A stretch of DNA of 27,165 bases, from positions 1-27,165 of the IMG/VR virus record IMGVR_UViG_3300032212_000122. The stretch is one strand, 5' to 3'. Numbering within the stretch: the stretch's first letter is position 1; every line of letters begins with the position of its first letter. The notes beneath the pieces are model-generated. The model searched no databases. It was given only the letters and a program-made list of their open reading frames with translations, and was not told the DNA's origin. Positions 19,842 to 24,668 of this stretch are shown here, piece by piece. The position numbers were made by a program, and so were the translations under genes. This DNA is from a virus. Lineage: Duplodnaviria; Caudoviricetes.

Positions 19842-21373
19842 TTGTAGACAATACCTCCGAAGCGACTGTGTGTGAGTTGTGTGTTCATAGCAACATTATC
19901 TCTTTCTATTTTCTGTTTAGGTGCCTTAGCTATCTCCACTACGGAGGCTAAGCAATCTTTAATGTCATCATGTCTAGGGCGAGCTTGTATAAGCTCCTCT
20001 TCTAATGCAGGAATATACCCACCCTTGTAATGCCACACTTGTAAATTATCGTATCGAGGTTCCAATGCTGCGGCAACACGCTCCTCCTTACTACCCTGAT
20101 GTCTGTTAGGACGATGTTCATCTATCTTCAGAATGCTTCCGTTCTGTTTAAATCTGTCCTTTAAATCCCTAACAATAACAGCCTGTGCCACCGTCACTTC
20201 AGCACGTAACAGCCTGAAGTCCCACTTCTGATGCACATCTTGAATGTGCGTGTAATAATCATTTATCTTATCTGTCCTAAATCTATCTATATCTAATACA
20301 TAAATATCGTTAGCAGCGCTAACACCTACCACTACAATAGCTGAATAATCAGCTTTGACATTCAAAGAGAATGCAAAATCTATTGCAGCATATACGTTTA
20401 GCTTGTCGTCTTTAAAATACCACTTACCTGCTCTTTGCTGTAAATGCTTCTTATCATAGTATTGAAAGCGGCTATTATCGAGTCTAGCACTTTCAGGATC
20501 GTTTGGATCATTATAGTATTGTGCATAGAACTGTGTCCTATCCGAATACATTGCTGAAATGCGAGCAAGCTCTTTCCGATTAAAACCAAAAAGCTTTCCG
20601 TCAGCTCTTGCCGTACGCGGCCAAAGAAATCTACCATCTACTTCCACCACCTCTTCCATAATATCCCATATAGGCTCTTCTCCTATAGGAACATCTGTCT
20701 CTTCATCATATATAGGAACTACTTGTTCCTTCCAAATACTGTATTGATCTGCTGGATGGTAGCGAGTACCACAAGCCTTTACAACACCACCAGTGTTTAG
20801 GATGGAGGCCATCTGTGACATAGCAGCAGCACACTTACGTCTGCCCTCTTCTGTGTACGCATTGTCAGGCACAACAACATCATCACTAACAACAACCTCT
20901 GCATGTAGCCCTGTAGTGTTTGTACTAAGGCCTGCGGCAAACACAGTGAAGTCTCGTATGCCTTCTTCTTTACGTCTGGGATGGTCTACAGAGATAGCAC
21001 CTGTGCTCCACTTCTCTCTCTTCCCCTCATCCTCATTCACCATCTCTGGCCAATAACGTCTATATATAGGAGACGTTAATGTATTCTTAATTGCATAAAG
21101 CTGTGCTTCCGCCAGCGTTGTTGTAGCTGATACATATAGAATAGAGGTTTCAGGATGCTTAGTCACCCACCAAGCCGCCCAAACTTCTATACAATGACTC
21201 TTCATGTGTGCTCGTGGGAGCAACAATAATTGATTGGGCGTATTCCCTTCTTGGAGCCATTTAAAGACATTCTCGTGTAACTCCCCATACTCCCTCTCGG
21301 GATGTACAAGACGAGCGAACGTCAGTAAGTCAGCCTCAGCTAGCTCTCTTATTTCTTCTATTTGGCTATTCAT
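19838..21373 (-). CDS. terL: Terminase large subunit
   Basis: Walker A-like LLLPRAHMKS, Walker B VVVSDDVV, coupling motif GTRYH, and nuclease acidic residues in AAIDFAFS, ADYSAI and HDDIKD. Confidence 0.95.
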   Translation of the reverse strand: MNSQIEEIRELAEADLLTFARLVHPEREYGELHENVFKWLQEGNTPNQLLLLPRAHMKSHCIEVWAAWWVTKHPETSILYVSATTTLAEAQLYAIKNTLTSPIYRRYWPEMVNEDEGKREKWSTGAISVDHPRRKEEGIRDFTVFAAGLSTNTTGLHAEVVVSDDVVVPDNAYTEEGRRKCAAAMSQMASILNTGGVVKACGTRYHPADQYSIWKEQVVPIYDEETDVPIGEEPIWDIMEEVVEVDGRFLWPRTARADGKLFGFNRKELARISAMYSDRTQFYAQYYNDPNDPESARLDNSRFQYYDKKHLQQRAGKWYFKDDKLNVYAAIDFAFSLNVKADYSAIVVVGVSAANDIYVLDIDRFRTDKINDYYTHIQDVHQKWDFRLLRAEVTVAQAVIVRDLKDRFKQNGSILKIDEHRPNRHQGSKEERVAAALEPRYDNLQVWHYKGGYIPALEEELIQARPRHDDIKDCLASVVEIAKAPKQKIERDNVAMNTQLTHSRFGGIVYK

Positions 21374-21376
21374 ATA

Positions 21377-21874
21377 TTATCGTTTAATTCTAGCTAGATC
21401 GCTATTCACAACACTAAGCTTAGCCTTGTCTTCTTGTTTCTTCTTCTTAGGCCTGCCTACATTAGCTTTACTTATATAATCATTATCTGCTAAATACTTG
21501 AGTGTTGCCTGTGAAGCTGTGCCCTCTTCAAGCTGTGCAAGCATGTTCTTAATACTCTTTCCACGAAGCTTAGCATTAAGCTCTTTCACCATAGCTGCAT
21601 AATACTCTTGGAAGAAAGGCTTGCTCTTAACGAGCAGCCAATGCTCGTAGTTAGCAAAATACATATTGGCGAATTCCCATTCGCTTACATCTTCAAGCTC
21701 TACATATAGTTTATGCAAGGAAGGGACGTAACGTCCATGATATCGTTTATCAGACGTAGACGTTGTGTACAACACAGCATCTCTGTCATTACAATGCTCT
21801 AAGAACAATCCTTCTGTCAAGAATTTGTTACCAAATCCTCTCCACTTATCTCTTTCTTTTTTTATCTCTTCCAT
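21377..21874 (-). CDS. terS: Terminase small subunit (putative)
   Basis: 165 aa immediately upstream of terL. Contains LF.E, SL.KLY.E..D..E.EFA, and a C-terminal VGRP.K and D..RI pattern. AAGGA RBS. Confidence 0.75.
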   Translation of the reverse strand: MEEIKKERDKWRGFGNKFLTEGLFLEHCNDRDAVLYTTSTSDKRYHGRYVPSLHKLYVELEDVSEWEFANMYFANYEHWLLVKSKPFFQEYYAAMVKELNAKLRGKSIKNMLAQLEEGTASQATLKYLADNDYISKANVGRPKKKKQEDKAKLSVVNSDLARIKR

Positions 21875-21899: not shown

Positions 21900-22209
21900 T
21901 GTTATGCATAACAGCAAAGCTGTCTATGCGTGTATATGTGTCTTGTTCACAAGACGTATGTCTTTTTTGTACGGTGTATGTGTATGGGCTTGTATAGCCC
22001 ATTGTATACAAATGCATGGATGCATTTGTTATTAATATATAAGCAATGCAGGGAAAGCATTGCTTTAGTGTTTAATAAGCAAGCCTTGCTTTAAGGCAAG
22101 CTTGCTATATTGTATTATCTGTCTGTCTTAAGGACAGACTGATTAAATTAATAGAGGTGTTTAAGACACCTCTTATATTATGTATACATCGAATGTCTTA
22201 AGGACATTC
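21900..22209. repeat. Chain of about ten short inverted repeats, the last four with a TTAAG loop
   Basis: Inverted repeats at 21900-21913, 21911-21923, 21940-21955, 21984-22002, 22008-22029, 22041-22065, 22078-22106, 22121-22139, 22153-22173 and 22191-22209. Confidence 0.9.
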
Positions 22210-22264
22210 TCTGTATTGCCTCCCCCCTCTTTATCTCCCCCCTCCAAGGGGAGCCGATAGGTAT

Positions 22265-22270
22265 ATTATA
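22265..22270 (-). promoter_or_regulatory. Candidate -10 element of the late (leftward) promoter
   Basis: Perfect TATAAT on the minus strand about 390 bp upstream of terS, with no good -35. Confidence 0.35.
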
Positions 22271-22627
22271 CACTGAAACCCTAAAAAAAGAAAGCTATGG
22301 TTACAATTCTTTACAAAAATAATACATACTTGTTACATTACCCAAGATAAGGAGCTAACATCGTCATAACGATGGGAGGGAAAAGAGCTAACAACTATCC
22401 AATCTATCCATCTCCCCTTAGGGAGAGCTGTCTAATATGTTAGCTCTGTGGTGGGAATATACATACATATATACACTATCCCCGTATAAAACACCAGCAG
22501 CCAGAGCTGCTGTTTATATTCTTTCCAACTCCCAGAATTTTCCGGAGATATTTTTAAGCTTCAATGCATAAGAAAACCTCTACCCCCTTCCCCCCTTCTA
22601 CCCCTTCATTATATTAGCTACAGCTTA

Positions 22628-22721
22628 AATAATAATCATTCTTATTTGTAAACTACTCTCCCCCACTAATATTAATCTAAATGATAATGATTCTCATGTA
22701 GTAATGATAATAATATTTATT
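22628..22721. promoter_or_regulatory. Three Fur-box-like sites
   Basis: 22628-22646 AATAATAATCATTCTTATT, 22680-22698 AATGATAATGATTCTCATG and 22703-22721 AATGATAATAATATTTATT match AATGATAATnATTATCATT at 15, 16 and 15 of 18 positions. Confidence 0.6.
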
Positions 22722-22751
22722 TGTAATACAATTACTAACACTCCCCCACTA
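22658..22751. repeat. Direct repeat CTCCCCCACTA (22658-22668, 22741-22751)
   Basis: Identical 11-mer, each copy shortly after TTATTTGTAA at the end of a Fur-like box. Confidence 0.85.
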
Positions 22752-22861
22752 TAACTATTATAGATATCAAGGACATAACATATTCATGTTGTGAATACAT
22801 ACATTAACATTGTGTAATGTATTTAGCTGTATATATAACCAGTTGCTGTTAGAGCTAATAT

Positions 22862-22882
22862 AAGCCCTTCTCAGGGGCTTTT
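22862..22882 (+). terminator. Possible terminator-like hairpin
   Basis: AAGCCCTT-CTC-AGGGGCTT followed by a short T run, upstream of the early promoters. Confidence 0.35.
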
Positions 22883-23072
22883 GTATTAAAGCCTAGCCTT
22901 AGTATTCCTCACTAGCGTTCGTTGAATGGCATGGCTATTGCATGGCAATATAATTAAATTAATTGTTTACATTGTTATTATTATATGTTAGATGCGCGCA
23001 CGCGTTCCTTTCTATGCAATTGTGTTTAATGTGTGTGTTATAAGCATTGTGTTTAATATAACTAAATGTTCT

Positions 23073-23100
23073 TTGCATTTATTCTTGTATGTTGTATTAT
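23073..23100 (+). promoter_or_regulatory. Sigma70-type early promoter P1
   Basis: TTGCAT-16 bp-TATTAT with an AT-rich upstream region. Followed by CACATC, as the second promoter is. Confidence 0.55.
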
Positions 23101-23146
23101 TTACACATCGACAAGGCATGAGGCCTTGCAAGATTTGGAGAGTGTT

Positions 23147-23266
23147 ATGAGTAAAGTAGTTGGTGTTGCTTTGTTTGCTTTGGGGGCTGTTATATTGCCT
23201 TTAGCATTTGAGGCATATATACAAGCTATCATCAACGTAGCTGCTTACACTGGTAAGCTACCATAA
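23147..23266 (+). CDS. First early gene, 39-aa hydrophobic peptide
   Basis: GGAG RBS at 23137-23140 and ATG at 23147 give MSKVVGVALFALGAVILPLAFEAYIQAIINVAAYTGKLP. The longer track start overlaps the promoter. Confidence 0.65.
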   Translation: MSKVVGVALFALGAVILPLAFEAYIQAIINVAAYTGKLP

Positions 23267-23282
23267 ATAATTTAAATAGAGC

Positions 23283-23310
23283 TTGACTCTTAAATAGATG
23301 TGATTATAAT
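23283..23310 (+). promoter_or_regulatory. Strong sigma70-type early promoter P2
   Basis: TTGACT-16 bp-TATAAT with an AT-rich UP-like element. The -10 is flanked by the inverted repeat AGATGTGA/TCACATCT. Confidence 0.8.
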
Positions 23311-23316
23311 TAGTCA

Positions 23317-23620
23317 CATCTGTTAAGGGAAAGTGTTTCTCTTTTGTGTTTGCTTGTGTGGCTATTGTCATGCAAGGGAGCCAAGCGCTAAGCAACCAGC
23401 GCGGGAGGTGAAGGTGTTAACGTGTCGCATACGTGACATATTAAAGGCTTTCTATTGAATCCCAGTGAGTGCATGCGGGCCAAGGCTAACCGCTTATGAA
23501 ATTGCCGATCGTTTGTTCTAGCGTCCCTAGTTATTTAGGGGAAATAGGAACGCGCCCCCAGTGAGGCGCATAACCAGCCGTGTAGGCCATCATAAATGAT
23601 GTCGGTGAATATCACTGCTT
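23317..23620 (+). ncRNA. Candidate structured non-coding RNA or long structured leader
   Basis: No credible ORF. GC-richer than its flanks, with at least seven stems, several relying on G-U pairs that work only on the + strand. Directly downstream of P2. Confidence 0.55.
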
Positions 23621-23651
23621 TAATAATATTCTTTTCTTAAGGTGTATTATT

Positions 23652-23786
23652 ATGACTCGAAGTAATAGAAGGCTAGCAAGGATAAACAAATCTTGTAAGC
23701 TCAAAGCAAAGCAAAAACCTGAAGTAGCTCACGTAATTACCGTGAGTAAGACAGTAAGAACACTTAAACCATTGACAGCTAATTAA
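23652..23786 (+). CDS. 44-aa basic hypothetical protein
   Basis: Not in the track. AAGGTG RBS; MTRSNRRLARINKSCKLKAKQKPEVAHVITVSKTVRTLKPLTAN. Its stop abuts the next RBS. Confidence 0.5.
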   Translation: MTRSNRRLARINKSCKLKAKQKPEVAHVITVSKTVRTLKPLTAN

Positions 23787-23797
23787 AGGTGAATGAT

Positions 23798-24271
23798 ATG
23801 AACGTATTAACATTAAAGAAATGTAAAGAAACAACAACACTAATTTCTAAAGCTGGTGTTAAGCTAGATCAACGTATACATGACGTTGCTGTGTCTGGTA
23901 TTGCACATTGGCTACAATGTGGAGATAACACCATTCTTACAGAGCTTGTTAAAGCTATGCCTAAATCGGGCAGAGGTAATGCATTGAAATTCTTTATTAG
24001 CAAACATACGAAAGGTATGTTGAAATGGGATAGTAAGGCTAACAACGGCACTGGTGGGTATAAAGGTAAGAAGCTAGATGTTAATAGCTGGGAGAAAATA
24101 GCAATTGTAATGGATGCTAACAAAGCTCCCTTCTATATGAAAGAAGATAAAGAGCCTAGTGTATGGAATGAGAAGGCGGCTGTTCTATCGCTTGTAGCTA
24201 AGCTAAAGAAACATGCTAAAGAGCATGAGCTATGCGAAGAGAGCAAGAGATTGTTGAGTGCGTTTGCATGA
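23798..24271 (+). CDS. Conserved phage early hypothetical protein
   Basis: AAGGTG RBS then ATG at 23798. The G.KLD..IH..AVS...H....GD......LV.AMPK..R.NAL pattern recurs in early regions of podoviruses. Confidence 0.8.
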   Translation: MNVLTLKKCKETTTLISKAGVKLDQRIHDVAVSGIAHWLQCGDNTILTELVKAMPKSGRGNALKFFISKHTKGMLKWDSKANNGTGGYKGKKLDVNSWEKIAIVMDANKAPFYMKEDKEPSVWNEKAAVLSLVAKLKKHAKEHELCEESKRLLSAFA

Positions 24272-24516
24272 AATACAAACATCTCTACCGCCGCGTGGAC
24301 TACCCCGAAGAGCGGGGCTATAGGATGGAAGCACAACCTCTGCCTGCTTGGATATATTTAACCATTAGAAAGAAAGGAGATAGTAAGAACTTAGTAGTGC
24401 ATTCTCGTATACACTTGAATAAGGAAGTGGTGTTAAATCCTGCTTATAGTGCTACTTTTTCTGACATTGATATAATCAAAGACCTTAGTGGTGAAGTAAG
24501 CCATAGGTTTTTATGA
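24268..24516 (+). CDS. Hypothetical early protein, 82 aa
   Basis: ATGA overlap with the previous stop; MKYKHLYRR...DIDIIKDLSGEVSHRFL. Confidence 0.7.
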   Translation: MKYKHLYRRVDYPEERGYRMEAQPLPAWIYLTIRKKGDSKNLVVHSRIHLNKEVVLNPAYSATFSDIDIIKDLSGEVSHRFL

Positions 24517-24668
24517 GGAAAGAACAAGCTATTTGTTCGCAAGAACAAGCTATCATTCCGAAAGGGATACCACTCATTATAGGCTTGGTGTTGTTGCTGT
24601 TTAGTGATTATGCAATGACTCCAGCCTATACATCTATGAAACAAATAACAGCCAGTGTATTTGGCTAG
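24513..24668 (+). CDS. 51-aa single-TM hypothetical protein
   Basis: Not in the track. ATGA overlap; MRKEQAICSQEQAIIPKGIPLIIGLVLLLFSDYAMTPAYTSMKQITASVFG. Confidence 0.6.
   Translation: MRKEQAICSQEQAIIPKGIPLIIGLVLLLFSDYAMTPAYTSMKQITASVFG

Follow-up and report, generated by a model that had tools for sequence, protein, structure and literature searches.

HK022 put and Bacillus EAR are RNA-only processive antiterminators, of which put consists of two hairpins and belongs to lambdoid temperate phages, while EAR contains a pseudoknot. Phage-encoded RNA decoys (pseudo-ToxI) exist as well, and twister-, pistol- and HDV-class ribozymes typically share a size such as that of the motif described here, pseudoknots, junctions with invariant nucleotides and an intergenic location in phages. 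The early leader studied here carries a predicted double-pseudoknot motif that touches on all of these systems. Like put and EAR, it is a short structured RNA that follows an early promoter and precedes a long operon transcribed by host polymerase; in contrast to them, it has a predicted two-pseudoknot fold and occurs in lytic podophages, and Rfam searches of the window and 16 loci revealed no sequence or structure likeness to either. Like type III antitoxin RNAs and phage pseudo-ToxI, it features an H-type pseudoknot with an A-rich loop, but it is a single 90-nt copy with extra domains and has no adjacent toxin family match. In size, pseudoknots and phage intergenic location it resembles pistol, twister and HDV-like ribozymes (including an AAUAG-like loop after helix P1, presumably as in pistol), whereas their catalytic-core topology is absent by eye. 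At the gathering threshold, Rfam 15 yielded no match in the window or in the 16 loci (seven of them motif carriers), save for three tRNAs in locus L001. Whether decoy or antiterminator, the motif does not belong to put, ToxI or any other Rfam family and, judged from its sequence, represents a new class of predicted structured RNA that is absent from Rfam, whatever its role.

The window, i.e., the whole 27,165-nt contig that was analyzed, covers ca. 56% of the genome of a Zobellviridae-like podophage, the capsid protein of which finds its best matches in Zobellviridae-type phages (e.g., GX1, ICP2 and CW02; 50–63% identity). Minus-strand structural genes extend to position 22017, and the leader heads the plus-strand early arm. 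A sigma70-type promoter on the plus strand (TTGACT-16-TATAAT, 23283–23310, 11 of 12 consensus matches) has a predicted start near 23317, and we infer that the RNA is made immediately on infection in the window's phage. The leader is followed on the same strand by a small basic ORF of 44 aa (23652–23786, with nine K/R in its first 30 residues), placed like the basic gp1 of other carriers of the motif, and by a phrog_1448 gene (23798–24271; phiKMV gp03-like, function unassigned), the marker that led to the RNA family. No family match was found for the 44-aa ORF, and BLASTP gave no alignment between its product and the counterpart in locus L005. Terminator-like sites are abundant in window 21900–24600 (15 vs. 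1.5 expected). Of the sequencing runs listed as containing the window, one was of DNA and none of RNA, and the DNA reads agreed with the leader at every position. Between an upstream promoter (23072–23100) and the leader promoter, a hydrophobic ORF of 39 codons (23147–23266) has a good Shine-Dalgarno sequence and no PHROG match.

The initial annotation had proposed that positions 23317–23620 encode a single structured RNA of ca. 300 nt. Its listed stems are present, with the exception of the CATCAT-AA-ATGATG hairpin, the 2-nt loop of which cannot close (23589–23602 folded alone yields −0.3 kcal/mol). The stretch is indeed GC-richer than its surroundings (0.484 vs. 0.345 upstream and 0.375 downstream), and CCCAGTGAG occurs at 23461 and 23557 and nowhere else, although this repeat was not seen in the family members shown and is probably incidental. 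A tRNA search and Rfam (with no Infernal match at E<10 inside 23317–23620) agreed with the view that the stretch is no tRNA, hammerhead or riboswitch. It is not strictly ORF-free as claimed, since a 41-codon GTG ORF spans 23333–23458, though ending before the conserved module. Folding of the whole stretch was modestly above chance (z-score of −1.98 on the plus strand and −0.09 on the minus strand), with five of the 21 sense-strand 304-nt control tiles of the same window reaching z ≤ −2.1. The proposal that G-U pairs betray plus-strand structure is weak as an argument by itself because the energy gap between the strands is mostly composition (shuffled mean folding energies of −90.8 on the plus strand vs. 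−74.0 on the minus strand). As one RNA, the 304-nt stretch is unremarkable, and it is not a single conserved RNA.

What stands of that proposal is a conserved sense-strand RNA in the early leader, as indicated by covariation among homologues and by the presence of its homologue in early transcripts of LUZ19; the conserved unit is ca. 90 nt long (23469–23558). The 300-nt RNA was overstated, yet it very probably includes a degenerate copy from a phage RNA family that is new and covaries strongly. On its 5′ side, the tile 23317–23445 folds well (z-score of −3.7 on the plus strand and −0.5 on the minus strand) and contains hairpins at 23353–23376, 23385–23402 and 23422–23439, which appear lineage-specific, overlap the 41-codon GTG ORF (of unassigned status), and had no homologue among the phage records and relatives' loci searched. 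On its 3′ side, 23552–23620 holds a hairpin at 23552–23569 and two weak ones (z-score of −1.9), for which no homologue was found in these searches either. Using the entire region, blastn against 50,697 phage records retrieved no homologue (nine matching Cellulophaga records, at E 0.5 and inside a gene, were set aside as chance), and blastn and nhmmer found nothing alignable in 80 terminase loci and 11 phrog_1448 loci.

Relatives of the window were gathered by terminase (best 80 of 294) and by phrog_1448, and at the corresponding position their leaders are poor in genes and not alignable to that of the window. The leader of L005, the terminase of which is 78% identical to that of the window, matched intergenic DNA of Vibrio phages VPp1/IME271 and of Erwinia and Salmonella Autographiviridae. 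With the Loshitsa2 copy as query 212 phage records matched, some of them weakly (the weakest being partial among the matches listed), while the phiNFS copy retrieved 94 records including LUZ19. The motif recurs at the same spot in ca. 300 records of unrelated lytic phages, and the family includes copies from KP34-like, phiKMV/LUZ19, Pectobacterium, Aeromonas, Vibrio and Vicosavirus phages. The setting is nearly always an early sigma70 promoter, the motif, and then a small K/R-rich gene and/or a phrog_1448 gene, with the promoter TTGAC located 78–440 nt upstream of helix P4 in family members and 242 nt upstream in the window. In IMG/VR, a P4-pattern scan produced 95 matches (46 at 34–95 bits, two at 19–20 bits and 47 without a model match), and two pattern sets for window-like variants produced 16 matches each, with no members in the first set and two in the second (L255, which is UFV-P2, and L262). 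A pattern scan of 185,579 GTDB genomes gave nine chance matches and no full member, which makes the motif a phage element. Locus scans with a single phrog_1448 protein, with ligase (one locus, the same as L083) and in GTDB added no new carrier.

Within the family, 46 distinct full sequences of what we call subtype A could be parsed, and these share the order P1, loop L1 (GCUGA), a 5-bp pseudoknot helix PK1, a variable A-rich joiner, a GA linker, P3, P4 and a tail. This tail usually pairs with the P3 loop (PK2; e.g., AACC/GGUU, AACG/CGUU, CGCC/GGCG or GGAUA/UAUCU), as read from examples and without a null. Covariation was scored over 30 distinct rows fitted to a model from which PK1 was omitted, and a MAFFT-only alignment gave the same picture. 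Paired cells amounted to 97.1%, compared to 34–44% in slid-register controls, and 14 of the 20 pairs had changed on both sides; none of 500 shuffles reached the covariation score of the alignment. The both-side changes fall in P1 (6/6), PK1 (5/5) and P3 (3/4), with P4 never varying and PK1 being 100% paired across the family. Covariation is strong, and the RNA family is almost certainly real. Invariant nucleotides concentrate at the junction (L1, the GA linker and the P3/P4 joint), and the change of L1 from subtype A to subtype B is accompanied by changes in two P4 pairs. This coupled switch and the junction invariance suggest a compact docked fold recognized by a conserved partner, and the switch may mark a tertiary contact or merely shared ancestry. 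By eye, Watson-Crick pairs between L1 and the P4 loop could be drawn for subtype A and in part for the window, but not for SnaP-R1, and this pairing was dropped, as was a closing stem from the GAA(A)TTGCCGAT common to L005 and the window, which maps to different motif parts. Since the distance to the next start codon varies from ca. 55 to more than 400 nt and there is no fixed terminator, a riboswitch was rejected as well.

In the window, the module spans 23469–23558 on the plus strand. Helix P1 (23475–23478/23490–23493) encloses L1 GCCAA (23479–23483) and the PK1 5′ strand (23484–23488); the "stem" originally described at 23475–23493 hence exists, but as one helix of a predicted pseudoknot that is invisible to a minimum free energy fold. 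The PK1 3′ strand (23502–23506; four of five pairs, one U-U) is followed by the invariant GA linker (23507–23508) and by P3 (23509–23524, with a U-U as first pair) stacked on P4 (23525–23540, in the subtype-B form CCCU/AGGG), the two together occupying 23509–23541. PK2 is predicted to join the P3 loop (ca. 23514–23519) with the post-P4 tail (ca. 23543–23551), as judged from covarying examples without a formal null, and could comprise 5–6 bp in the window vs. 3–4 bp in other subtype-B members. Three covariance models from which the window had been withheld (R1, R2 and R3) all ranked 23469–23558 as the best in-window match and over its full length, be it weakly (13.3, 11.8 and 14.7 bits, with E-values of 0.04, 0.06 and 0.016, respectively, for 54 kb searched), and a separate genome search returned no match at E ≤ 0.001. 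A pseudoknot-aware scorer for subtype A assigned 23.6 to the window copy vs. 22.7 to the best site elsewhere in the window and 49–62 to the family, and 39 of 20,000 leader shuffles reached the window's score. The invariant sequence of subtype A (L1 GCUGA and P4 CCAC/GUGG) is replaced by GCCAA and CCCU/AGGG; P1, PK1, GA, P3 and P4 occur in order and at family spacing, on the sense strand, after a sigma70 promoter and before the basic ORF and phrog_1448.

These two departures are bridged by other phages. Among eight phages picked by their phrog_1448 protein, phiNFS carries subtype A with an inserted hairpin and Sphaerotilus phage SnaP-R1 (which, of 261 records matching the phrog_1448 protein of the window, gave the best phage match) carries a copy with the same two departures as the window and a perfect PK1; the motif was not found in the other six, i.e., PSA11, 1.204.O, Fri1, Dev-CD, Pagan and Pori-2. 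SnaP-R1 in turn led to Vicosavirus UFV-P2, Rembedalsseter and NV1, and the pattern scan added L262 with CCCAA as L1. Four distinct sequences (SnaP-R1, UFV-P2/Rembedalsseter, NV1 and L262) therefore share the variant L1 and P4 of the window, while their P1 and PK1 differ and are fully paired. They have a TTGAC promoter before and a basic ORF after the motif, the latter followed by a phrog_1448-like gene in SnaP-R1, UFV-P2 and L262. The window displays the resulting subtype-B signature (L1 SYCAA and P4 CCCU/AGGG). The window is bridged to the family by four independent phage sequences with the same variant loop and helix, and since three other subtype-B members tested with the same model scored only 12.9–20.1 bits, low model scores characterize the subtype itself. 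A subtype-B descriptor applied to 2.3 Mb matched only these four sequences, the window and the window's own record (L086), and none of 200,000 shuffles, a figure that is optimistic since the tolerances were set after seeing the window. Positions 23469–23558 very probably belong to the RNA family as subtype B, and this copy helps to define the family's second subtype. It is the most damaged subtype-B member, with a U-U mismatch in two places and a reduced P4 loop, and could be decaying. SnaP-R1 (L241:680-715) and L262 (L262:590-615) further share an identical stretch of ca. 20 nt upstream of the subtype-B motif, possibly a module of its own.

In LUZ19 the motif is located at about 1405–1508 and is 100% identical to the phiNFS query. 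Long imperfect hairpins, which we take to resemble T7 RNase III sites, lie just before the ribosome-binding site of the first gene in LUZ19 (L239:1355-1395, i.e., LUZ19 ca. 1700) and in L107:875-945, L241:855-925 and L237:1980-2060. The LUZ19 transcript tables (PMC10914365) report sigma70 starts P002–P005 (950–1284) that yield gene-free units ending at 1704 as well as longer units into gp0.1–gp3. When compared with these coordinates (Table S5), the motif falls within the gene-free P002–P005-to-T003 units of 420–754 nt, whereas P006 starts after it. These early units, which contain a phiKMV-type copy of the motif, are listed in PMC10914365 as units without a gene and without a described structure. 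The next plus-strand starts in its TSS table are 1561 and then 21134, with none between, so that ca. 19.5 kb of LUZ19 relies on left-end promoters; its authors suggest long-range processivity for phiKMV-like phages. The same tables place 3′ ends downstream of the motif (T003 at 1704, T004 at 1768, T005 at 2852, T006 and T007) and none within 1405–1508, and the longest reads from P002–P005 stop at 1.8–3.6 kb. T003 lies inside the long hairpin before gene 1, and the ncRNA candidates given in that source (21134–21207 and 21331–21415) are away from the motif.

We tentatively favor a reading in which the motif is a cis-acting, put/EAR-like processivity or antitermination RNA acting on host RNA polymerase, which we regard as possible rather than probable. 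The early host-type promoter would fire and the motif would be transcribed just after; once folded, it would act in cis on the host RNA polymerase that had just made it, and the modified polymerase would be carried through the long early arm. This is our first choice because of the position after early promoters, the sense strand, the restriction to phages and the arm of LUZ19 with its 19.5 kb free of promoters. Against it stand the 3′ ends downstream of the motif and the short longest reads in the LUZ19 tables, as well as the P006 start beyond the motif. Moreover, since the motif was found neither in six of the eight phrog_1448 phages nor in the window's seven distinct closest phrog_1448 relatives (L081, L083, L084, L085, L087, L088 and L091), similar phages manage without it. 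Both of these observations would fit a stable RNA that is released (by termination or an RNase III-type cut at the pre-gene-1 hairpin) and acts in trans on a host protein (e.g., a defense component or RNA-binding regulator), serving as its decoy or inhibitor, and so would the gene-free 420–754-nt LUZ19 units holding the motif, with T003 in that hairpin. The patchy presence and two subtypes are in line with such an accessory host-facing module, as are leaders built as mosaics of separate modules. We nevertheless consider it somewhat unlikely, because the motif is present as a single copy without a ToxI-like repeat array (no 36–57-nt tandem repeat of a pseudoknot unit in window 21900–24600, and one model match in the leader) and has no Rfam antitoxin match, and because the same fold across phages of Entero-, Pseudo-, Vibrio- and Betaproteobacterial hosts would point to a core target that is conserved, and not to a sporadic defense system.

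The remaining explanations are less probable. A new small self-cleaving ribozyme maturing the 5′ end of the early transcript would suit the size, the two pseudoknots, the invariant junction nucleotides and the phage intergenic site, but is improbable given that no Rfam ribozyme matched, that neither pistol P2 nor the nested topology of HDV can be seen by eye, and that five "invariant" positions switch between subtypes; LUZ19 transcripts also traverse 1405–1508 with no mapped end in the tables, though the method could miss cyclic-phosphate ends. The basic ORF that follows in most carriers, window included, raises the prospect that the motif is the putative binding site of this adjacent small K/R-rich protein, as an N/nut-like pair or feedback loop. 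The basic proteins belong to different PHROG families or none, those of the window and L005 do not align, and phrog_1448 is itself the first ORF encountered in L110, L112, L190 and L208, so that the conserved RNA would have unrelated partners, making such a pair more improbable still. Compact pseudoknots block exonucleases in other viruses, and the motif sits at the 5′ end of all early transcripts, where it could stabilize early RNA as a nuclease-blocking structure; this is very unlikely, as the LUZ19 tables show no end at the motif boundary and invariant sequence is not obviously needed for it. Finally, the family could be real and the window's stretch a chance look-alike or dead relic in an ordinary spacer leader, as its low covariance-model scores, two U-U mismatches and closest relatives without the motif might imply. 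The shared position, strand and gene neighbors, the presence of both subtype-B signatures plus P1, PK1, P3 and P4, and the descriptor's lack of extra matches (with tolerances set after seeing the window) give this a low probability.

Returning to antitermination, it is possible, and again short of probable, that a horizontally exchanged, docked double pseudoknot takes hold of host RNA polymerase, or of some other core machine of the host, within seconds of the start of infection, enabling RNA-only transcription, and hence pull-in, of the 20-kb early arm in virulent podophages of the phiKMV, KP34, Vicosavirus and Zobellviridae types, with the subtypes marking coupled changes of the docking surface. 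This bears on the question of how host RNA polymerase covers ca. 20 kb from a few left-end promoters, and RNA-based phage counter-defense is likewise an active field. The motif occupies a region annotated as empty in model and therapy phages (phiKMV/LUZ19, KP34-like, and Pectobacterium and Vibrio podophages), and the family, as a small target delimited by covariation, lends itself to mutation followed by compensatory rescue in phage-host pairs kept in the laboratory. No description of it was found in the open full-text literature searched. Six 9-mers had no match in the text-readable supplements of Fremin 2023 (PMC10690425), and the motif may be among the candidates of that study; these phages go unmentioned in the main text of a 2026 language-model survey (10.64898/2026.10.21.760802).

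A number of other elements were noticed in these loci. A purine/pyrimidine-tract block of the window (22522–22609 and 22040–22210) is conserved in L001, L005, L081 and L083 and is probably near the genome end or packaging site, with several short palindromes between this block and the terminase genes. In L001, the closest terminase relative, three tRNA genes lie between the terminase genes and the genome-end block (1430–1671), where the window has none. Instead of the pseudoknot motif, the leaders of the relatives closest to the window by phrog_1448 carry a conserved block of their own, GGTACG.TTGGGCA ... AACAATACAA.CTCTATTC (L081:2780-2890 and L083:2760-2860). Slopek-/Corkvirinae leaders share a second element just upstream of the motif, i.e., a hairpin and then a GATGAC...ATCCTAGA-like sequence, which looks like a conserved RNA module (L107:660-740, L108:670-745, L109:675-730, L114:645-700, L115:700-755 and L116:700-755). 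A third module downstream of the motif consists of a long stem with compensatory-looking changes between PPWS1 and Klebsiella phages (L108:965-1050, L114:870-990 and L115:905-995). PPWS1 duplicates the 3′ tail of the motif as well, and the leaders look like mosaics.
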